Below, in pieces: positions 1 through 39,436 of a stretch of 39,436 nucleotides of DNA. The number at the start of each line of letters is the position of its first letter. The stretch's first letter is position 1. Source of the stretch: a virus; IMG/VR virus record IMGVR_UViG_3300045988_020061. One strand, 5' to 3'. A program made the position numbers and the translations under genes. Below the pieces are notes generated by a model. That model searched no databases. It had not been told where the DNA came from and saw only the letters and a list, made by a program, of their open reading frames with translations.

Positions 1-23
1 TGTGCCGGTATGACCTTTCGGTG
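1..23. repeat. Left copy of the 23-nt terminal direct repeat TGTGCCGGTATGACCTTTCGGTG
   Basis: Identical to 39414..39436 by direct comparison. Confidence 0.95.
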
Positions 24-10759: not shown

Positions 10760-11295
10760 ACACTCACCTCTCCCCACCGGCTCACCAAGGCATCCAGCTG
10801 TCGCGGCGTCATGGTCTCGATGCCGACATCCCGGCAGTCCTGCACAATGGCGTCTATCAGCCGCGCCATCTGCTCCGTGTCGTATGCGGAGCTGCCATAC
10901 CAGACGGTCACGTTTACGCAGCCCTTGATCTTGCTGGGGCCGGTATCGGCCATCCATCCGATACCGTTCCGCTCCCAGCTCCGGCAGAACGCCTCCGCCG
11001 CCTTTTCCCGCAAGCACAGCACCTCGCTGACACCGCCGATGCCCTGTATCTCCTGCCTGTATACCTTCTCCCGCGACACGCCGTAGTGCGCCGCCAGTTT
11101 GTCCAGCAGAACCCAGCAATAGGCGTTGGCATCGAGGCTCCGCCCCTTGCCTTTGATGGTGGCGGTGTACTCCTTCCCCGGCTTTATGGTGTCACACAAC
11201 TCCATTGCCGCCTCTGGAGACTTCACACGCAGACAGAGCCACGCTCCCTCGCTGTCCTGCGACCACCGCGCCGCATCAACCGTTATCTGCTGCAT
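10756..11295 (-). CDS. NinB/Orf-like recombination mediator
   Basis: KGRSLDANAYCWVLL...GSSAYDTEQMARLIDAIVQDCRDVGIE parallels lambda NinB (RSLDQN...GQSTSRM...ELIQAFG). Confidence 0.5.
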   Translation of the reverse strand: MQQITVDAARWSQDSEGAWLCLRVKSPEAAMELCDTIKPGKEYTATIKGKGRSLDANAYCWVLLDKLAAHYGVSREKVYRQEIQGIGGVSEVLCLREKAAEAFCRSWERNGIGWMADTGPSKIKGCVNVTVWYGSSAYDTEQMARLIDAIVQDCRDVGIETMTPRQLDALVSRWGEVSV

Positions 11296-14520: not shown

Positions 14521-15177
14521 ATGGAAAAAACTTTGCAGGATATTTGCAGAGAGGCAAAGGAGTATCAGCATCTTACCACGCAAGACTTAGCCGATTTAAC
14601 AGATCTGTCATCGTCCACGATCAGCAATTACTTTTCTGCGTCGTCAAAGGATCCAAGCCTATACAAAATGGGGCTTATATGCGCCGCCCTCGGTGTGTCT
14701 ATAGATGAGTATTTTGGTATCGTAAAGAGACCAACCACGGAGGAGCAGCTGGCAGAGGCCCACAGAGCAATGGCCGATGCAGATGCAAAGCATAGCACCG
14801 CCTTACGCATTGCGCACTTGGAGGGCGGCATGGAGCAACTGACCGGATCAGTGGCAAAGCACGAAAAAAAGGAGCGCGTATTGCAAATTTGGGTGTATAT
14901 CCTGGCGTTTTCGCTGTCGATTTCCGTATCCATAATATTTGGATATTTGGCGTTTGACTCAAGCGTCCCGCAAACAGGGCTTATCCGCAACGGGAAGATT
15001 ACATCACTCGGCTGGATGCTATTTGCACTGCTTGCGGTAGGCGTCGGAGTAATCATTGCTGCGCTGATTAATGCGCTGCGATATTACAGGCACCATCAAA
15101 CCGATAAAAATATAGGGCAGGAGGATAAAAATGGGAAAAGCAATGAGGAGGGCCAACGGAACCGGGACGGTGTATAA
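14521..15177 (+). CDS. Membrane-tethered XRE-family HTH protein
   Basis: HTH segment LTTQDLADLTDLSSSTISNYFS. This is followed by a coiled segment and two predicted TM helices (IWVYILAFSLSISVSIIFGYL and WMLFALLAVGVGVIIAALI). Confidence 0.6.
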   Translation: MEKTLQDICREAKEYQHLTTQDLADLTDLSSSTISNYFSASSKDPSLYKMGLICAALGVSIDEYFGIVKRPTTEEQLAEAHRAMADADAKHSTALRIAHLEGGMEQLTGSVAKHEKKERVLQIWVYILAFSLSISVSIIFGYLAFDSSVPQTGLIRNGKITSLGWMLFALLAVGVGVIIAALINALRYYRHHQTDKNIGQEDKNGKSNEEGQRNRDGV

Positions 15178-16132
15178 GCTCGCCGGCCGCCGCCGCAGGC
15201 CCTGGGTGGCCGCAAAGCAAAAAATCATTATAGGATATTACCCTACCAAAAAAGATGCTATAGCGGCGCTGGAACGCCTTGCAGGCAAGGATTTAACGGA
15301 GCGGTACAACATGACCTTTGCCCAAGTGTTCGACGCTTGGAAAGTGGAGCATTACAAAAAAATAGGGCCAATCGGTATAGAGGGCTATGACGGCGCATTT
15401 AAAATTTTTGCGCCTCTGCACGACCGGAAGTTCCGGGAATTAAAAACGGCAGATTTCCAAGGCGTGCTGGATGCCCATATGCATAAATCCCATAGCACTG
15501 TGTCCAAGTATAAGCAGCTCTTAACGCAGATGTCCACATGGGCCATGCGCGAGGAGATCATCACAACAAATTTTGCAAAATTCGTCCAGCTCCCCGAAAA
15601 CACAAAAAAAGAAAAAGAAACATTTACCGATGCTGAAATAAGCAAACTGGAAGCGGACGGCAGCGACACCGCAAAAATTATCCTCATGCTGATTTACACA
15701 GGCATGCGCATAGGGGAGTTGTTTTCCCTCCCGACTAAAGACTATCACAAAGATTATGTGATCGGAGGCGAAAAGACGGAAGCCGGGCGGAACAGGATCA
15801 TTCCCATCCGCCCCGAAGGGCTCCCATACTTTGCCTATTTTGCAAATAAGGCCACCGGCCCGCTGCTCATATCCGGCTATGCTGGTGAAAAAATCCCAGC
15901 AAACTTCCGCCGTCGGGATTATTACCCGCTTTTGGAAAAATTAAAAATCCAGCGCAAAACGCCGCACTCCACCCGGCACACCTATGCGAGCTGGGCGAGA
16001 AAAGCGGGGATTGCTCCGGAGACGCTACAGAGGATCCTCGGCCACGCCAACTACTCCACTACCGCAAATATATATGTCCATACGTCAGCGGAGGAATTGG
16101 TGCAGGCCGTTAAAAAGGCGAAAATTTGTTAG
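15131..16132 (+). CDS. int: Tyrosine recombinase / phage integrase
   Basis: RRANGTGTVYK arm-binding N-terminus. Catalytic region HSTRHTYASW...LGHANYSTTANIYVH. AGGAGG RBS. Confidence 0.95.
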   Translation: MGKAMRRANGTGTVYKLAGRRRRPWVAAKQKIIIGYYPTKKDAIAALERLAGKDLTERYNMTFAQVFDAWKVEHYKKIGPIGIEGYDGAFKIFAPLHDRKFRELKTADFQGVLDAHMHKSHSTVSKYKQLLTQMSTWAMREEIITTNFAKFVQLPENTKKEKETFTDAEISKLEADGSDTAKIILMLIYTGMRIGELFSLPTKDYHKDYVIGGEKTEAGRNRIIPIRPEGLPYFAYFANKATGPLLISGYAGEKIPANFRRRDYYPLLEKLKIQRKTPHSTRHTYASWARKAGIAPETLQRILGHANYSTTANIYVHTSAEELVQAVKKAKIC

Positions 16133-16144
16133 TAGTTTGTTAGT
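16128..16144 (+). repeat. Two GTTAGT arm-type repeats (P arm)
   Basis: GTTAGT at 16128 and 16139, overlapping the int stop codon. Confidence 0.55.
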
Positions 16145-16270
16145 TACCGACGGGAGCCAAGGCAGGCCCGTGCAAAATTACTCGGCGAAAAGTTGCAAAA
16201 TCGCAACAAATGCTGTTGTTTTTATTAACTTTTGTGCTTATATATTCAGAACGGGTATATTTGACGTGCA

Positions 16271-16305
16271 TGGGGTCACAGGTTCAAGTCCTGTACCGCG
16301 CACCA
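16271..16305 (+). other. attP core: 3' fragment of a tRNA gene (T-arm, acceptor 3' strand, CCA)
   Basis: ACAGG-TTCAAGT-CCTGT T-arm, then ACCGCGC-A-CCA. No matching 5' acceptor strand (GCGCGGT) lies upstream, so this is not a complete tRNA. Confidence 0.7.
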
Positions 16306-16347
16306 AAAAGTCCAGGAATCTCAAGGGTTCCCGGACTTTTTATTTTT
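16306..16347 (+). terminator. Rho-independent terminator following the tRNA fragment
   Basis: Stem AGTCCAGGAA/TTCCCGGACT with one mismatch, followed by TTTTTATTTTT. Confidence 0.7.
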
Positions 16348-16362
16348 GCCAAGATTAACTTT

Positions 16363-16398
16363 GTTAGTAATGTGTTAGTAGTAGCGATTTAGGTTAGT
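16363..16398 (+). repeat. Three GTTAGT arm-type repeats (P' arm)
   Basis: GTTAGT at 16363, 16374 and 16393, in the same orientation as the P-arm copies. Confidence 0.55.
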
Positions 16399-16712
16399 TT
16401 TTTTAGGACGCTGTTATAAGCTTTCTCATTGACGATTTTTAGGGTGTCCATAAGCTCGTCCATGACTTCCCACGCCCTATCCTGCGCCACATTCCCGACC
16501 GCTTCCAAAAATTCACTGCCGGAGGGTTTTATTGTCTTGTCCGGCGCAGGCTCTGCGGAATACAGCATTGGGGGCGCTTTCGCCTGCGGTTGCTCCCCGC
16601 CGTGCTCGTTACGGATAATGTAGAGAGCCGCCAGTTTCTCATAATTGGGCCAGCTTGATTCTTCTGTTTCCAGCCGTGCGATCCATAGTTTCAGCTCGGT
16701 TTCATCGATCAT
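16389..16712 (-). CDS. Hypothetical protein (accessory cassette)
   Basis: ATG (MIDETELKLWIARLE) follows AAAGGGGGA. Confidence 0.5.
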   Translation of the reverse strand: MIDETELKLWIARLETEESSWPNYEKLAALYIIRNEHGGEQPQAKAPPMLYSAEPAPDKTIKPSGSEFLEAVGNVAQDRAWEVMDELMDTLKIVNEKAYNSVLKKLT

Positions 16713-16725
16713 GGGGAATCCCCCT

Positions 16726-17103
16726 TTAATTCTCCATAAGGCTGACAGCGCGGCGCAGGGCATCCCTGACGCGCTCGTCATCAGTTTCCCGCATCATGTC
16801 GTTTAGCTGGGTGCGCAGATGCTCCGCGCCATCCGCACGGCTGTAATGTCCGCGCACATAGTGCGAGCCGCGCCGCGCGTAGGAACTGCCCCGTCCATAG
16901 GCGCCGCGCATATCCGCTTCCCAATCACCGCCGCCAGAATAGCCGTCTGATTCCATCATGTCAATTTTATCTATGTTCTTGATGGTTGCTGTCAGTTTGT
17001 GGGCAATTTCCAGGTCACCCGCACCCAATTCGCCCTTTCGGGCCAGTTCGTCCAGCTCCTTGCAGAGCATATCCCGCAGTTCATACATAGATTTCATACC
17101 CAT
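16726..17103 (-). CDS. Hypothetical protein with a Gly/Ser/Arg/Tyr-rich centre (accessory cassette)
   Basis: 125-aa ORF with an AAGGAG RBS and helical ends flanking GYSGGGDW...GRGSSYARRGSHYVRGHYSR. Confidence 0.55.
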   Translation of the reverse strand: MGMKSMYELRDMLCKELDELARKGELGAGDLEIAHKLTATIKNIDKIDMMESDGYSGGGDWEADMRGAYGRGSSYARRGSHYVRGHYSRADGAEHLRTQLNDMMRETDDERVRDALRRAVSLMEN

Positions 17104-17117
17104 TGTGTTCTCCTTTC

Positions 17118-17540
17118 TCAGCTCACACGGTCGATGGTCAGGTTGCTATTGGCAAAGCTGACCGCCTCCGCGCTGGTGTTCTTCGCTGCCACAGTCACGC
17201 AGCAGCCACGCGGCACTTCCACAATGGCGCTGACATAGACGTTAAAATAGTTTTCCACCGCAGCAGGGGTGACGGTCGCCGTTGCTCCGTTGAGTGCCTC
17301 GCCGTTGACGGCAAGCGCCGTGGTGATCGCACCTACCGTGCCGCCCGTGGGGACGGCGATGTTTGCGCCAAAGCTCACCTTAAAGCGCGCCTTACACTGC
17401 TGCGTCAATCCGCGCAGGGTGACAAGTCCACTGCCCTCTCGGTGGACGATGCAGGGCTTGCCGCAAGCCGCCGTGGAGACCATCGGCACATTCTGTCCGG
17501 CAGGAACAATGACGATCCCGGGGTTCACATATTCAGCCAT
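17118..17540 (-). CDS. BclA C-terminal-domain-like (C1q/TNF-like jelly roll) protein without collagen repeats
   Basis: VPAGQNVPM...IVHREGSGLVTLRG...ALAVNGEALNGA...VAAKNTSAEAVSFANSNLTIDRV follows the BclA-CTD pattern as I recall it. Confidence 0.5.
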   Translation of the reverse strand: MAEYVNPGIVIVPAGQNVPMVSTAACGKPCIVHREGSGLVTLRGLTQQCKARFKVSFGANIAVPTGGTVGAITTALAVNGEALNGATATVTPAAVENYFNVYVSAIVEVPRGCCVTVAAKNTSAEAVSFANSNLTIDRVS

Positions 17541-17557
17541 ATATTTCAGTCCTTTCT

Positions 17558-17590
17558 AAAAATACAGCGGCAGGGCTATTGCCCCGCCGC
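17558..17590 (-). terminator. Rho-independent terminator between accessory genes
   Basis: On the minus strand there is a 10-bp stem GCGGCGGGGC/GCCCTGCCGC (one G-U pair) with loop AATA, followed by TGTATTTTT. Confidence 0.65.
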
Positions 17591-17658
17591 GTTATCGTAG
17601 TATCGGCACGGGGCCGACCATTTCGCCGTTGTCGGCAAAAAGCTATGCTATGCAGTTG

Positions 17659-18396
17659 TCAGCAGCCGCAGCCCTGATTGCATCCGCAGCCGCCGTAACC
17701 GCTGCCTGCCCACGGGTTACAAGTAATGTAGGCAGGCGAAGGGCACGGACGAAGCTGCGAGATCAGATAGTTGTTCTGCGCGGCCTGAGATGCCGCCAGC
17801 TTCAGATTCTGATTCTCGGTCTGGAGGTCGGACAGCTTGCTTTGCGTCAGGAAGTCGAGGATGGCGCGGCTGTTCTGGTTGTTCGCGTCAATGATGTCGC
17901 GCGTGGCGTTCTGCACGGTGTTGCGCGTGTCGCACGCCTGCGTCGCCATGTCGTAGCGCACCTGCGCGATAGCTGCACGGTTTTCGCAGCAGCAATTTGC
18001 GGCCTGCATCTGCATGGCGTTGAGTTGCTGCATCAGCGCCGCCTGCTGGTTGCTACGGGACAGCTCGGCCTGTGCAAAGCCGTTTGCCATCGCCATGTTG
18101 GTGCCGTTGACAAGCTGCGCTTGCTGGTAAAATCCGTCGCAAAGGCCCTGATTTACGCTGTCGATCTTGCGCTCGACATTGGCAAAATCAGAGGTCAGCA
18201 CGTAGCCGTCTACGACGCCGCCGGAATTGCCGGCGTTGTTTCCCCAGCCGTTGCCGCCCCAGCCGCAGAACACAAACAGGAAAAGAATGATGATCCACCA
18301 CGCACCATCGCCGCCGAAGCCGCCAAAGCCGCTGTTCATCATGCCGGTAGGCGCAACAGGCATAGTGGCCTGAACGCCGCCGTCAGAAAGAGACAT
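17659..18396 (-). CDS. Low-complexity membrane protein (Gly-rich N-terminus, TM helix, Q/N-rich coiled coil, C-terminal CGC repeats)
   Basis: GFGGFGGDGAWWIIILFLFVFCGWGGNGWGNN, then NQQAALMQQLNAMQMQAANCCCENR, ending in GYGGCGCNQGCGC. AAAGGAGTG RBS. Confidence 0.6.
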   Translation of the reverse strand: MSLSDGGVQATMPVAPTGMMNSGFGGFGGDGAWWIIILFLFVFCGWGGNGWGNNAGNSGGVVDGYVLTSDFANVERKIDSVNQGLCDGFYQQAQLVNGTNMAMANGFAQAELSRSNQQAALMQQLNAMQMQAANCCCENRAAIAQVRYDMATQACDTRNTVQNATRDIIDANNQNSRAILDFLTQSKLSDLQTENQNLKLAASQAAQNNYLISQLRPCPSPAYITCNPWAGSGYGGCGCNQGCGC

Positions 18397-18430
18397 AGTA
18401 TCACTCCTTTGAAAAATTTTTATTCATCAA

Positions 18431-18444
18431 ATCGTGGCCACGAT
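18431..18444. promoter_or_regulatory. Perfect 14-bp palindrome ATCGTGGCCACGAT upstream of 17659..18396
   Basis: Read directly from the sequence. It lies between a hairpin (18457-18491) and the RBS of the downstream gene. Confidence 0.5.
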
Positions 18445-18486
18445 AAGATTCCTGTAAATAAGCAAACTCTTTGCTAATTTGTTTGC

Positions 18487-18705
18487 TTATTGCATCAGAC
18501 TTTGAAACTGCTTTGCCATCTGCTGAAGCTGGTTGAGCTGCTGCTGGTTCAGCTTACCGCTCTGCAAGAGCTTTTCGACCTCCGCTTTGGGGTCACCCTT
18601 GAAATTTGCTTTGAACTGGTTGAACTGCTGCATCATGCGCTGGAACTGGCCTACCGGTCCGGGCATCTGCCCGCCGCCCAGCGCGGCCATGAACGGATTA
18701 GTCAT
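18487..18705 (-). CDS. Q-rich small protein (accessory cassette)
   Basis: MTNPFMAALGGGQMPG...QQLNQLQQMAKQFQSLMQ. The ATG follows GAGGAGG. Confidence 0.5.
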   Translation of the reverse strand: MTNPFMAALGGGQMPGPVGQFQRMMQQFNQFKANFKGDPKAEVEKLLQSGKLNQQQLNQLQQMAKQFQSLMQ

Positions 18706-19147
18706 CGTCATCGTCCTCCTCAACCTTGCGCTTCTTTTTCCCCTTTATTTCGCCCACAAGCTCCGCCAGACGGTCGAACTCCTCGCGGGTGACAAATTCC
18801 ACGCCCGGCTTTTGCGGCGCGTTAGAGGCCGTTTCTGCGCGTTCCACGAGGTCGTAAATCTTGAGCGCCGGTTTTCCGCTTGCGTCTGCCTGCTTGAGGT
18901 AAACGGTGGGGGCGGTGGAATCCCACAACGCTACGGCAGAGTTTGGCGCGATGAGATAACCTCTTGCCTCCTGCTCGCCGCTTACCCACTGTACGCCGCC
19001 TTGTGCGATGGGGTTCTGTTGCACTGGCTGCGACATAGGCTGCTGCATGGGCTGCATCTGTGGCTGCTGCATCTGCCGCATCTGCATGAGGTTGTCTGGC
19101 ATCGGCTGCGGATAATAGGGGTTGAAATAGGGATATGCCATGTTCAT
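18698..19147 (-). CDS. Protein with a P/Q/M-rich N-terminus, a globular middle part and a poly-acidic tail (accessory cassette)
   Basis: MNMAYPYFNPYYPQPMPDNLMQMRQMQQPQMQPMQQ...VQWVSGEQEARGYLIAPNSAVALWD...EEDDDDD. The ATGA overlaps the upstream gene. Confidence 0.55.
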   Translation of the reverse strand: MNMAYPYFNPYYPQPMPDNLMQMRQMQQPQMQPMQQPMSQPVQQNPIAQGGVQWVSGEQEARGYLIAPNSAVALWDSTAPTVYLKQADASGKPALKIYDLVERAETASNAPQKPGVEFVTREEFDRLAELVGEIKGKKKRKVEEDDDDD

Positions 19148-19527
19148 TCCTCCGTTTCTTTGTCCCAGAAATAAAGCGGGATTTCGTTCTCGCTGTTCCA
19201 GCTGTCATAGATAATCCCGTCCTGAACGCACACTACATGCCCAGAGAGGGCAAGAATATAAGTCCCGTGCGGGTGATCATCGGCAAACCTGCCGACCGTG
19301 TAACAGTCCGGGCAAGTGTCCGGTATGATGTATCTCCGGTAGCCTAAGGACCGCAGATACGCGCCCCAACAGGCGTCTGCATTGGGCAAGTCACCGTCCA
19401 AGTAGCCCTGCATGCACAGCCGGAGGTACACGTCGCCCCAATCCTTTCCCGTGGCCTTACAGATCGCACGGACAGTGCAATCGGACACGTTTTTCCCGCA
19501 GGGATTTGGATTAAAATATTTATACAT
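19144..19527 (-). CDS. Hypothetical protein, possible papain-like Cys/His fold
   Basis: MYKYFNPNPCGKNVSDCTVRAICKATG...LSGHVVCVQDGIIYDSW is a recurrent gut-Firmicutes family with conserved Cys, His and Asp. The fold assignment is an inference. Confidence 0.5.
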   Translation of the reverse strand: MYKYFNPNPCGKNVSDCTVRAICKATGKDWGDVYLRLCMQGYLDGDLPNADACWGAYLRSLGYRRYIIPDTCPDCYTVGRFADDHPHGTYILALSGHVVCVQDGIIYDSWNSENEIPLYFWDKETEE

Positions 19528-19660
19528 GATTGCAATCCCTATATAGGCTTTCAGCAATTTCCACATACGCTAAAAGCCCCTGGGGATCGTCTGCGTACAG
19601 AATGCAAATATCCTGCGCCATTTGCGCGGTAAACCCGCATTTGATTAAGCGCTCGTACAT
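19520..19660 (-). CDS. 46-aa hypothetical protein (absent from the ORF track)
   Basis: MYERLIKCGFTAQMAQDICILYADDPQGLLAYVEIAESLYRDCNHV. AAGGAGG RBS. It overlaps the next start by 8 nt. Confidence 0.45.
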   Translation of the reverse strand: MYERLIKCGFTAQMAQDICILYADDPQGLLAYVEIAESLYRDCNHV

Positions 19661-19680
19661 ATTCCCGCCTCCTTGCCTCT

Positions 19681-19718
19681 ATAATAAAAGAAATCCGGGC
19701 AGATAAACTGCCCGGATT
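19681..19718 (-). terminator. Rho-independent terminator (second of a tandem pair)
   Basis: 11-bp stem AATCCGGGCAG/CTGCCCGGATT, followed on the minus strand by TCTTTTATTAT. Confidence 0.65.
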
Positions 19719-19785
19719 CTGCCTTGATTCTGCAATAATTAAGCTTCTTCTTTCCCTCTTTAATTAGTTTCTCGTTGTGTGCAAA

Positions 19786-19826
19786 AACGAAAAATAGCCG
19801 CGCCCTTTTTGGGCGCGGCTATTTTT
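19786..19826. terminator. Bidirectional Rho-independent terminator after the lysis-module genes
   Basis: 12-bp stem ATAGCCGCGCCC/GGGCGCGGCTAT with T-runs on both strands. Confidence 0.75.
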
Positions 19827-20100
19827 AGGAATTGAATGCATCCGCCAGTTTTTGGTATGCGCGGCGGCGCAATTTGTAAAATCCATCTACGCTGATATGT
19901 AGTTTTGCCGCCGTCTGTACGCAGGTGCGGCCAAAAACGTCCACGTCAATTACACAGGTTTCCTCGTCTTCCGGTAGCCCTACCGCACGGATTGTTTCTG
20001 TGGCGCGGCATGGTGCCATAGTGGATAGTTTTTTGCGGATCCTTTTGTGCTGATCTATCATTTCCCACGGTGTGCCGTGGAGGTGCGGATGTTTATGCAC
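19825..20100 (-). CDS. Small HTH protein (sigma region-4-like); start uncertain
   Basis: C-terminal CVQTAAKLHISVDGFYKLRRRAYQKLA. The start is either GTG at 20100 or ATG at 20061. Confidence 0.45.
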   Translation of the reverse strand: MHKHPHLHGTPWEMIDQHKRIRKKLSTMAPCRATETIRAVGLPEDEETCVIDVDVFGRTCVQTAAKLHISVDGFYKLRRRAYQKLADAFNS

Positions 20101-20150: not shown

Positions 20151-20819
20151 TTACCCCTCTCGGATGTAGCCCTCGAAGCCAGCGTTTTTCAAGCGCTGGA
20201 GCATCTTCTCGGCGTTCTCGCGGACGGCAAATGCGCCGACCTGGACGCGGTAGAGCTTATCGGTGGTCGGCTGGGCGGGCTTAGGCTGCTCCTTCTCCTT
20301 GTAGGCCACGCCAAAATAGTTGCAGATACCGTGGGCGATAGCTTCGCCGATCTCCGTGGTATGCTCCACGATCCACTTTGCTACGCTTGGCACATCGTGA
20401 AAATCGACCTCAATATAGGCCGTTGGAGCCACAGCCGCCTTGACCTCATACAGACTGGGATTTGCCTTGATGTTCTCGCTTGTGCCGGGGGAGACGGGCG
20501 CAACCACATCGAAAATGGCCTTGCAAGCCTTGTAGCCGTTGCCGCTGGTATTGTAGCAAAACATGCGCGTACCGCTCACGGAGCCGTTGAAGGAGTTGGT
20601 ATGGATCGGCACATGAAGGTCAGCGCCCCAGCTATTGGAGTGTCTGCATCTGTCCTCGATCTCTACACCGGCATGCTCCATCATTACTTCGATGCCGCAG
20701 CGCTCCAGCGCGGCCTTACACGCAGCGCCGATCTTGCCGCACTGCTCACCCTCGGTGGTGCCACCGTAAGCGTACGCGTTATTAAACTGCTTGGACGGGG
20801 AAAGATATACCTTAGCCAT
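20151..20819 (-). CDS. Endolysin: N-acetylmuramoyl-L-alanine amidase (Amidase_3) with a C-terminal SPOR domain
   Basis: YLSPSKQ...HTNSFNG amidase core. C-terminal YRVQVGAFAVRENAEKMLQRLKNAGFEGYI. Confidence 0.9.
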   Translation of the reverse strand: MAKVYLSPSKQFNNAYAYGGTTEGEQCGKIGAACKAALERCGIEVMMEHAGVEIEDRCRHSNSWGADLHVPIHTNSFNGSVSGTRMFCYNTSGNGYKACKAIFDVVAPVSPGTSENIKANPSLYEVKAAVAPTAYIEVDFHDVPSVAKWIVEHTTEIGEAIAHGICNYFGVAYKEKEQPKPAQPTTDKLYRVQVGAFAVRENAEKMLQRLKNAGFEGYIREG

Positions 20820-21027
20820 TGTTTTTTACCTCCTTGTTGTAGTTGACCGTGGAAATGCACAGCACCGCGCCGAGGAACGTGTCCACGGCGGTGATGGTGG
20901 TCACCACCTCATCAGGGTACGGCCACGCCCATACACCCGCCAGCGCCGCGTACAGGGTTGCCAGCGCGGGCAGGACGATGATGACCACCCACTTCAGGAT
21001 GTCGTACAGTTTGTTCGATAGTTTCAT
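20812..21027 (-). CDS. Holin
   Basis: MKLSNKLYDILKWVVIIVLPALATLYAALAGVW...TAVDTFLGAVLCIS contains two TM helices. The gene overlaps the endolysin start. Confidence 0.85.
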   Translation of the reverse strand: MKLSNKLYDILKWVVIIVLPALATLYAALAGVWAWPYPDEVVTTITAVDTFLGAVLCISTVNYNKEVKNNG

Positions 21028-21068: not shown

Positions 21069-21221
21069 TTATTTGTTGGTGATATGCTCCAAATCATCGA
21101 TACGATGATTTGCGACCTTGATTTGTTCCTCCAGCGCTGAAACGCGCAGGGCAAAATTGTTGTGTTCCCGGACTGCCCGGGTCAGCTCGTCCAATTTGGT
21201 ATCGGTAACGGCCTGATCCAT
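21069..21221 (-). CDS. 50-aa coiled-coil protein in the lysis module (absent from the ORF track)
   Basis: MDQAVTDTKLDELTRAVREHNNFALRVSALEEQIKVANHRIDDLEHITNK. The RBS is weak. Confidence 0.35.
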   Translation of the reverse strand: MDQAVTDTKLDELTRAVREHNNFALRVSALEEQIKVANHRIDDLEHITNK

Positions 21222-39413: not shown

Positions 39414-39436
39414 TGTGCCGGTATGACCTTTCGGTG
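39414..39436. repeat. Right copy of the 23-nt terminal direct repeat
   Basis: Identical to 1..23. Most simply explained as circular-assembly overlap. Confidence 0.95.

Follow-up and report, generated by a model that had tools for sequence, protein, structure and literature searches.

A cassette of eight minus-strand genes, p1 to p8 (16389–19660), lies between the lysis genes and the phage attachment (att) site of the virus record IMGVR_UViG_3300045988_020061, whose whole stretch of 39,436 nucleotides (nt) is referred to here as the window. We found that these genes belong to a strictly ordered module that ranks with the most common conserved gene sets found in phages of the gut's dominant Clostridia and that diverges in step with head and tail genes. 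We tentatively propose, as a possible rather than a probable reading, that the module is a widespread, vertically conserved phage operon with a helix-turn-helix (HTH) gene in front, and not a sporadic moron or a spore-specific device, and that its products may form a membrane-anchored complex in the infected or lysogenic cell with an effect on the envelope. The original prediction, made from the letters of the window, had described an insulated accessory cassette that might remodel the spore or cell surface of the host. Its eight minus-strand open reading frames (ORFs) behind two tandem terminators were found again at, or a few bases from, the same positions, and the features that it listed for the single proteins (the 46-residue p1, the Cys/His protein p2, the P/Q/M-rich p3, the Q-rich p4 and the motifs of p5) were exactly as described.

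Conservation and distribution of the module

One genome per species was scanned for related loci, which yielded 80 loci, mostly on contigs of ~40 kb in metagenome bins of Oscillospiraceae, Ruminococcus, Acutalibacteraceae and Lachnospiraceae. The genes were co-conserved, as the original prediction had suggested checking, and the order p2-p3-p4-p5-p6-p7(-p8) was kept in ~55 of the 80 loci. The pair p5 and p6 occurred in ~77 of 83 scanned loci; p4, p7 and p8 were detected in 56, 63 and 36 loci, respectively, and p1 in only 5 by jackhmmer, with small p1-like ORFs bearing the same motif seen by eye ahead of p2 in many loci and present also in Dulem virus 33. A second group of loci had a shorter variant, p3-(gap)-p5-p6, which in locus L055 directly followed the holin gene. 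The p2, p5 and p6 families each comprised at least ~8,000 clusters at 90% identity, all with the source name 'hypothetical', and p6 was at least 78% identical across more than 100 clusters. PHROG families were matched by p2 to p6 at E values of 1e-19 to 1e-56 and partially by p7 (9e-12), the match of p8 was non-significant, and p1 had none; the families concerned (3754, 21718, 22984, 16490, 20016 and 28802, for p2 to p7) are all labelled 'unknown function'. This PHROG membership, together with synteny in dozens of divergent loci, shows that p1 to p8 are real genes and not chance ORFs.

All eight genes were present in the same order, adjoining the integrase gene, in Dulem virus 33 from lemur faeces (~65% nucleotide identity). 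The genes p2 to p7 were also found in Butyrivibrio virus Ceridwen, a cultured phage of a non-spore-forming genus, in which they lie after the endolysin gene and a predicted terminator and before the XRE/antirepressor region. The authors who described Ceridwen saw lytic growth only, found no integrase or excisionase and regard the phage as virulent (PMC7372960), and no integrase is annotated in the Ceridwen record. Between the window and Ceridwen, p2 to p7 shared 31–47% identity, and the terminase, portal, head-morphogenesis, capsid, connector, tail-tube and tape-measure genes shared 29–46%; the tail-tip and lysis genes gave no match, the integrase had no counterpart and only three replication-region proteins matched. 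As judged from these alignments, the module shares its inheritance with the head and tail genes and keeps pace with them in divergence, and we therefore regard it as an old, vertically kept part of the phage lineage and not as a sporadic add-on.

The word 'accessory' in the original prediction therefore does not fit a module that is strictly ordered and lineage-conserved. The moron cassettes located between the lysin gene and attP in Firmicutes phages share its position and its flanking terminators, and the comparative −10 signature suggests that it may also have a promoter of its own. Morons, however, typically comprise one or two genes and are patchy, whereas this module comprises eight genes in a fixed order, is lineage-wide at the divergence of head and tail genes and also occurs in integrase-less phages.

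Parts of the module were detected in more distant phages. In Clostridium perfringens phage CPD1, family hidden Markov models (HMMs) identified p3 (E = 1.8e-29), p5 (2e-44) and p8 (1.6e-17), which are located between the amidase and holin genes on the upstream side and the recombination and replication genes on the downstream side. In the crAss-like phage cr115_1, gp43 is a p5 homologue (E = 1e-54) located directly after the holin and LysB-like genes, and p5 is the most widely distributed component of the cassette. CPD1_040 and crAss gp44, both at the position of p6, and crAss gp42, at that of p7, were considered as further homologues and rejected; because the family HMMs miss these positional analogues, only p3, p5 and p8 are credited to CPD1 and only p5 to crAss-like phages. 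The p2 family occurred alone, without the rest of the module, in Tsamsa-like Bacillus phages, where its members are annotated 'putative peptidase', at the late-to-early border of the genome of Geobacillus phage GBK2, and in Prevotella Lak megaphages. Among 50,697 phage records, the searches with p3, p5 and p6 detected no homologue in phages of Bacillus or C. difficile, and apart from CPD1 a p5 homologue was detected in no C. perfringens phage of the collection, which we assume to include phiCP26F/phiCP13O-type phages. Phages of that type are named as relatives in the Ceridwen paper (PMC7372960).

Inheritance with the terminase, portal, capsid, tail-tube and tape-measure genes at similar divergence would also be expected of a virion-associated or morphogenetic module, in which p3 to p8 form an accessory particle structure or a transient late assembly factor, for example a decoration with a TNF-like lectin knob. 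Such TNF/C1q-like knobs are common in phage fibres and spikes, and the fold matches of p6 include the phi812 central spike, cyanophage tail fibres, fibritin and Klebsiella tail fibres; the crAss-like p5 homologue lies between lysis and virion genes and is annotated 'spike protein/glycoprotein', and both Dulem virus 33 and CPD1 have homing-type endonuclease genes inserted between p4 and p5. However, two strong terminators split the module from the structural and lysis genes and it has a −10 signature of its own, the close relatives L084 and L086 carry the cassette beside non-homologous tail-tip genes, p6 has no N-terminal attachment domain, a transmembrane (TM) protein accompanied by low-complexity proteins rich in Q or in Y, S and R would be an unexpected set of virion parts, and among the C. 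perfringens phages of the collection a p5 homologue was detected in CPD1 only. A virion role is rather unlikely in our judgement.

The position of the module bears on another alternative. The module, or p5 alone, was found directly 3' of lysis genes in five or six unrelated backbones, namely the window, Dulem virus 33, Ceridwen, L055, cr115_1 and, more loosely, CPD1. This would fit a lysis-associated function, in lysis timing or in release through an extra envelope layer, with p5 as a holin- or spanin-like membrane partner; p5 resembles i-spanins in its N-terminal TM helix, its helical stalk and its conserved cysteines. We consider such a function highly improbable, as the hosts are mostly monoderm, terminators lie between the module and the lysis genes, and the lysis set of the window is already complete with an endolysin (20151–20819; Amidase_3 and SPOR in the Pfam scan) and, by eye, a holin ORF and an XhlA-like ORF; moreover, add-on genes usually lie at the end of the late operon in any case. 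The same cassette was found beside different endolysins (Peptidase_M15_4 and Amidase_3) and different integrases, and in L086 the lysis genes and the cassette are separated by inserted reverse-strand genes.

A predicted spore-surface fold in p6

The AlphaFold2 (AF2) model of p6 (predicted local distance difference test (pLDDT) 95) is a TNF/C1q-like jelly roll. In a Foldseek search against the PDB, its best matches were the BclA C-terminal domain (CTD), F-BclA-CTD, ExsF, BxpB and ExsFA, with E values of ~1e-6 and TM-scores of 0.70–0.77; the BclA-type entries 3tyj, 1wck and 9h38 came at the top, and the ExsF/BxpB/ExsFA entries 9h3d, 8d02, 7r1m and 7r5i followed at E values of 4e-6 to 3e-5. These were followed by TNF-family ligands, C1q domains and the knobs of phage fibres or spikes. 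In BFVD, the best matches were standalone proteins of ~135 amino acids (aa) from uncultured gut phages (TM-score 0.82–0.89), two of which had been labelled 'BclA protein' by their depositors, and the best 150 of the 564 clusters of the p6 family at 50% identity were all short (72–196 aa), with collagen repeats in none of them. AF2 and Foldseek thus agree with the original description of a BclA-CTD-like (C1q/TNF-like) protein without collagen repeats, and a TNF/C1q-like fold of the BclA-CTD/ExsF type is confidently predicted for p6.

At the sequence level, p6 did not match the Pfam BclA-C domain (PF18573) at E values up to 1, a phmmer search of all PDB chain sequences gave no relevant match at E values up to 10, and no cassette protein matched any NCBIfam family, the exosporium leader TIGR03720 included, at E values up to 1. 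Because sequence-level matches are absent, membership of p6 in the BclA or ExsF families is not established, although the fold call is right. ExsF and BxpB resemble p6 in their predicted jelly roll, in standing alone and in size (~140–150 aa), and ExsF trimers bind proline-rich leaders, while p5 carries a conserved proline-rich motif. The differences are that p6 resembles neither ExsF nor BclA in sequence, lacks collagen repeats and an exosporium leader, is encoded by phages, one of which infects a host that does not sporulate, and is not accompanied by an ExsY/CotY-type partner.

These matches speak for the idea, raised in the original prediction, that the prophage supplies coat- or exosporium-like proteins that are built into, or remodel, the spore surface of the host. 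The cassette proteins also have no signal peptides, as is the case for coat proteins made in the mother cell, and there are compositional parallels in the Q-rich p3, the Y/S/R-rich p7, the Cys-rich p5, the Cys/His enzyme and the neighbouring GerE-type HTH gene; among spore-coat proteins, GerQ is Q-rich like p3, and CotG parallels p7. Many of the hosts (Oscillospiraceae, Ruminococcus, C. perfringens) belong to groups that include spore-formers. However, the p2 to p7 set occurs in full in Ceridwen, a lytic-only phage of Butyrivibrio fibrisolvens without an annotated integrase, p5 occurs in crAss-like phages, whose hosts do not sporulate, and no homologues of p3, p5 and p6 were found in the Bacillus and C. 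difficile phages searched. No sequence match to BclA-C, to the exosporium leader or to any coat family was obtained in Pfam or NCBIfam, and the promoter signature upstream of the cassette is sigma-A-like. Inspection by eye for promoters of the sporulation sigma factors (E/K) gave one candidate sigma-K promoter, CATAGCATA, a lone CATAnnnTA match 3' of the p5 stop codon, which was rejected because it is not conserved and lies upstream of a terminator. Co-inheritance with the head and tail genes, and the presence of the module in a phage that is reported to be virulent and whose host does not sporulate, make spore remodelling a weak idea, which we consider very unlikely; remodelling of the cell surface, the other half of the original suggestion, is possible.

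p5 and the remaining cassette proteins

The p5 protein has an acidic, Gly-rich N-terminal tail (on average 2.7 D/E versus 0.6 K/R), one TM helix, AWWIIILFLFVFCGW, flanked by GFGG-type repeats, and a long Q/N-rich helical region. Its nearly invariant motifs are CCC, ASQxxQN, RPxPxPAYxxxNP and a C-terminal GCGC, the copy in the window ending in GCGCNQGCGC. Pfam gave no match to p5, even when 40 diverse members were included, nor did the PDB. A coiled-coil resemblance of p5 to viral fusion proteins (E ~0.3) was too weak to be taken as homology; it probably explains the 'spike/glycoprotein' label in the crAss records.

Low-complexity sequence was also found in p3 (Q/P/M-rich N-terminus), p4 (Q-rich) and p7 (Y/S/R/G tract). 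In p3, the P/Q/M-rich N-terminus is followed by a beta-rich core (WVxGE...YxK..D.SG.P), a helix and a charged tail that ends in KKKRKVEEDDDDD, with DDDDD at the very C-terminus. In p7, a helical N-terminal domain and a helical C-terminal end enclose the Y/S/R/G-rich tract, which varies in length. Inspection by eye showed a hydrophobic helix in p5 only and a signal-peptide-like N-terminus in none of the eight proteins, evidence that the products are not secreted by the usual route and that p5 alone provides a membrane anchor. Pfam and NCBIfam scans of all eight proteins gave nothing significant, a PADLOC scan gave one non-significant match (E = 0.04), and PDB sequence and profile searches with p2, p3, p5 and p6 gave no significant match, in line with the earlier statement that the combination resembles no described system.

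The original prediction had proposed p2 as a papain-like Cys/His protein. In 39 sequences, Cys17, His97 and Asp108 of p2 were invariant, and in the AF2 model (pLDDT 92.8) Cys17 starts a helix (17–26), His97 precedes a strand (98–102) and Asp108 ends a strand (105–108), so that the Cys is at a helix N-terminus and the His and Asp are on adjacent strands. These features are shared with papain-like (clan CA) cysteine peptidases, transglutaminases and deubiquitinases. Unlike members of that clan, p2 had no significant fold match: its least poor Foldseek matches were papain-like (AvrPphB, Josephin-2 and NlpC/P60; best E 0.14, TM-score ≤0.5), and Pfam, NCBIfam and PDB sequence searches found nothing. 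The residues and the topology thus agree with the proposal, a significant match in fold or sequence does not accompany them, and p2 is at present a candidate papain-like enzyme.

Transcription signals and an RNA leader between p5 and p6

The insulation of the cassette by terminators, part of the original description, was supported by both the terminator scan and the folding energies (Table 1). The small HTH protein encoded ahead of the cassette had a weak Sigma70_r4_2 match (E 0.009–0.014), and its homologue in L008 reached 2.9e-9, above the Pfam cut-off; three of the ten HTH proteins tested from the loci passed Pfam cut-offs. A small HTH gene of the r4/GerE type was located directly 5' of the cassette hairpin in ~21 of 23 loci (partly judged by eye), and its product is a candidate regulator. 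In nearly all loci whose upstream sequence was long enough, the order was the HTH gene, a GC-rich hairpin with a T-run, a TGnTAnnAT-type box and the ribosome-binding site (RBS) of p1 or p2. A TGn-extended −10 box followed the upstream hairpin in 14 of 38 loci, compared with 3.1 ± 1.6 in shuffled sequences, which suggests a sigma-A-like promoter upstream of the cassette.

A second conserved element was found in the p4–p5 spacer. In most of the ~45 spacers compared, a GC-rich palindrome (with centres such as GTGGCCAC, GTGCGCAC and GCGGCCGC) is followed by TTGAnATAAAT, which sits ~25–35 nt ahead of the p5 start codon; some spacers instead have a stem with a 9-nt loop bearing a self-complementary hexamer (GCGCGC, GTGCAC or CGTACG). 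The palindrome of the window folds weakly (−6.6 kcal/mol, z = −1.3). It may serve as the operator of an HTH protein that binds as a dimer, as a combined terminator and promoter, or as a kissing-loop RNA.

The p5–p6 spacer contains a structured RNA leader, in which hairpin H1, AUG(G/U)UC, hairpin H2 (UCGGC/GCCGA), GAUAnUG, the terminator hairpin H3 (17567–17590) with its U-run and the RBS follow one another. The two internal hairpins named in the original prediction are both real, the one behind p4 by its folding energy (18457–18491, z = −4.1) and H3 by the terminator scan. In the window, the leader folds at −45 kcal/mol (z = −4.0). Leaders from 37 loci were aligned and analysed with RNAalifold, and H1, which MAFFT left out of register, was scored per sequence: it varies in sequence and was present in 34 of the 37. 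H2 and the terminator hairpin covary, with 93.6% of cells paired versus 82.8% in shuffled alignments and 61 double-change cells versus 15; none of 500 shuffles was as good, and controls with slid partners paired in at most 62%. The many G-U pairs indicate that the structure lies in the sense-strand RNA. No Rfam match was found for the leader at E values up to 1, and it may be a new cis-regulatory RNA of the attenuator type in gut phages. Since the terminator ends ~20 nt before the RBS of p6, expression of p6 to p8 must depend on regulated or partial read-through, and the leader would set the ratio of p1–p5 to p6–p8. A riboswitch-type antiterminator, in which H2 pairs with the 5' arm of the terminator, was rejected: it works in the window and fails in loci with other terminator sequences.

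A proposed role at the cell envelope

From these results, we propose the following model. The late operon would stop at T1 and T2, and the cassette would be transcribed as its own unit from the −10-type box directly after T2, with the palindrome and −10-like box ahead of p5 and the terminator-ended leader gating p6 to p8 as further control points. In the complex, p5 would be the membrane anchor, with a short acidic N-terminal tail, a TM helix, a long helical stalk and Cys clusters, and p6 the TNF/C1q-like head, presumably trimeric as are all relatives with this fold. The clefts of ExsF trimers dock proline-rich leader peptides of BclA and F-Anchor (PMC12357932), and by analogy p6 may dock on the proline-rich RPxPxPAY motif of p5, as ExsF trimers hold BclA-type leaders. 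The proteins p1, p3, p4, p7 and p8 would serve as low-complexity or helical adaptors, and p2 might be a papain-like enzyme that processes or cross-links one of the components. The effect would be to protect or modify the cell envelope to the advantage of the phage, in the lytic as well as the lysogenic cycle, for example by superinfection exclusion. We rank an envelope effect of this kind first because the module serves temperate and apparently virulent phages and has a sigma-A-type signature. Its presence in the integrase-less Ceridwen, the partial set in CPD1 and the occurrence of p5 in crAss-like phages likewise support a role that is not tied to lysogeny or spores.

Several observations weigh against this envelope model. 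Known superinfection-exclusion functions are usually encoded by single genes, and eight are many for that role. Co-inheritance with head and tail genes and adjacency to lysis genes fit a virion or lysis role equally well. Because the p2 family occurs alone in other phages, p2 may not act on other cassette proteins. Both flanks of the p5 TM helix are almost uncharged, so the topology of p5 is only weakly indicated, and the TATTAT box of the window has neither a TG extension nor a clear −35 element.

The sigma-A-type extended −10 signature would also suit an early host-takeover or anti-defence operon, transcribed by the host RNA polymerase at infection and constitutively in prophages, with p2 as a protease or deconjugating enzyme directed against a host factor. 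The genomes of Ceridwen, CPD1 and GBK2 are unidirectional, and in them the module, or just p2, is located at the late-to-early border, ahead of recombination and replication genes; in Tsamsa-like phages the p2 homologues are found among small genes of unassigned function, and the least poor fold matches of p2 are effectors and deubiquitinase-type papain-like enzymes. However, the PADLOC scan linked none of p3 to p8 to a known defence or counter-defence family, and anti-defence genes are usually fast-evolving and patchy, with which the high identity of p6 across its clusters contrasts. We therefore regard a takeover function as distinctly unlikely.

A further and more speculative reading, which we think unlikely, is that the module encodes an undescribed virus-built structure: a Cys-rich coiled-coil membrane anchor would bear ExsF-like TNF-fold trimers on its proline-rich docking motif, packed with Q-rich and YSR-rich low-complexity proteins and cross-linked or matured by a papain- or transglutaminase-like enzyme, to give an exosporium-like layer or scaffold in vegetative infected gut anaerobes, its stoichiometry being set by the new RNA leader.

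Relation to known systems

The closest analogues of the module are ExsF/BxpB and BclA-CTD in fold, lysogenic-conversion cassettes in position and membrane-anchored exclusion proteins in the action that we propose. The last group includes Ltp of phage TP-J34, Sie2009 of lactococcal phages, and Imm and Sp of T4. Like the proposed complex, these proteins are anchored in the membrane, are made from the prophage or early in infection, have their genes outside the structural block and serve temperate and virulent phages. Unlike it, each of them is one small protein, and p5 resembles none of them in sequence or fold. PHROGs record the families singly and do not describe the operon, its gene order, its regulatory RNA or its distribution. 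Literature searches on phage-encoded exosporium- or BclA-like proteins and on C. perfringens phages found no paper on the module. As the module fails at least one defining feature of exosporium proteins and of morons, has no sequence or fold similarity to exclusion proteins, matches no PADLOC, Pfam or NCBIfam family and is described in no paper found, we rate it as outside the known kinds of system, although it could be a new implementation of a known function.

The module joins a spore-surface fold, a membrane anchor, condensate-like low-complexity proteins and a regulatory RNA of its own. Working out its role would annotate part of very many gut phage genomes and could reveal a new way in which phages alter host cells. 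Because p2 to p7 are present in the cultured pair of Ceridwen and B. fibrisolvens DSM 3071, the question is testable at the bench.

Organization of the window and minor observations

The first and last 23 bases of the window (1–23 and 39414–39436) are identical, and this exact end repeat indicates a complete, circularly closed phage genome in its attP (non-integrated) form. On the minus strand, structural genes are followed by the lysis block, the small HTH gene, the two terminators and p1 to p8 (Table 1). At its 3' end, the cassette shares a bidirectional terminator (16307–16343), which adjoins a tRNA-fragment att core, with the convergent integrase gene.

Table 1 Features of the cassette and its borders in the window
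Feature	Position	Strand	Remarks
Small sigma-70 region-4/GerE-type HTH gene	19825–20100	-	Last gene ahead of the cassette
T1, intrinsic terminator	19790–19826	-	Terminator scan, 16 pairs and T-run; −28.8 kcal/mol, z = −7.2
T2, intrinsic terminator	19691–19719	-	Terminator scan; −21.7 kcal/mol, z = −6.6; abuts the −10-like box of the cassette
Candidate −10 box, TATTAT	19681–19686	-	20 nt ahead of the p1 start codon
p1	19520–19660	-	46 aa, helical, motif ERLIxxGF
p2	19144–19527	-	127 aa, candidate papain-like Cys/His/Asp enzyme, phrog_3754
p3	18698–19147	-	149 aa, phrog_21718
p4	18487–18711 (ORF 18487–18723)	-	72–74 aa from ATG codons, Q-rich helical, phrog_22984
AT-rich hairpin directly 3' of p4	18457–18491	-	−10.6 kcal/mol, z = −4.1
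Conserved palindrome ATCGTGGCCACGAT, then −10-like box TTGATGAATAAAAAT	18417–18444	-	~25 nt 5' of p5
p5	17659–18396	-	245 aa, phrog_16490
Structured RNA leader, p5–p6 spacer	17541–17658	-	118 nt, three hairpins
p6	17118–17540	-	140 aa, standalone, predicted TNF/C1q-like jelly roll, phrog_20016
p7	16726–17103	-	125 aa, weak match to phrog_28802
p8	16389–16711 (ORF to 16781)	-	107 aa, helical, last cassette gene; RBS and ATG at 16711
Bidirectional terminator	16307–16343	both	Plus-strand scan match 16315–16331; −19.1 kcal/mol, z = −3.95 (minus strand)
att core, tRNA 3' fragment (T-arm, acceptor arm, CCA)	16263–16305	+	From sequence

The ORF of p2 extends over 19144–19566, and comparison with relatives shifts the likely true start to 19527, giving a protein of 127 aa that matches theirs; the same comparison places the likely start of p8 at 16711. 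The placement of the cassette between lysis genes and attP in the original prediction holds on both sides, with the endolysin gene on one and, on the other, the att core and a tyrosine integrase gene (15131–16132) that converges on it. The core is a tRNA 3' fragment in a window in which ARAGORN found no whole tRNA, and it matches many otherwise unrelated phage contigs at 83–95% identity; given these matches and the convergent integrase, calling this border attP is correct.

The holin-like ORF (20812–21027; 71 aa with two TM segments) and the XhlA-like ORF (21069–21221; 50 aa, coiled coil), both recognized by eye, lie 5' of the endolysin gene. Between p5 and p6, the close relatives L084, L085 and L087 contain (at 10883–11080) an additional gene of 65 aa that the window does not have. 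The endonuclease-type genes between p4 and p5 occupy L001 7745–8296 in Dulem virus 33, where the insert is annotated 'endonuclease', and L002 4044–4667 in CPD1 (CPD1_038), where the product is Cys-rich and HNH-like by eye. Because these two distant phages share the insertion site, homing into a well-conserved target is suggested, and homing-type endonuclease insertions usually target well-conserved phage genes. In L048, L059, L060 and L062, the p3 and p5 homologues are broken by in-frame stops under translation table 11, and the genes of cr115_1 likewise contain in-frame stops; these interruptions make it probable that the phages concerned use a reassigned stop codon. On either side of the att core of the window (16129–16147 and 16363–16386), short TTAGTA-type repeats, GTTAGTAGTTTGTTAGTTAC and GTTAGTAATGTGTTAGTAGTAGCG, were observed, and they may be arm-type integrase-binding sites.

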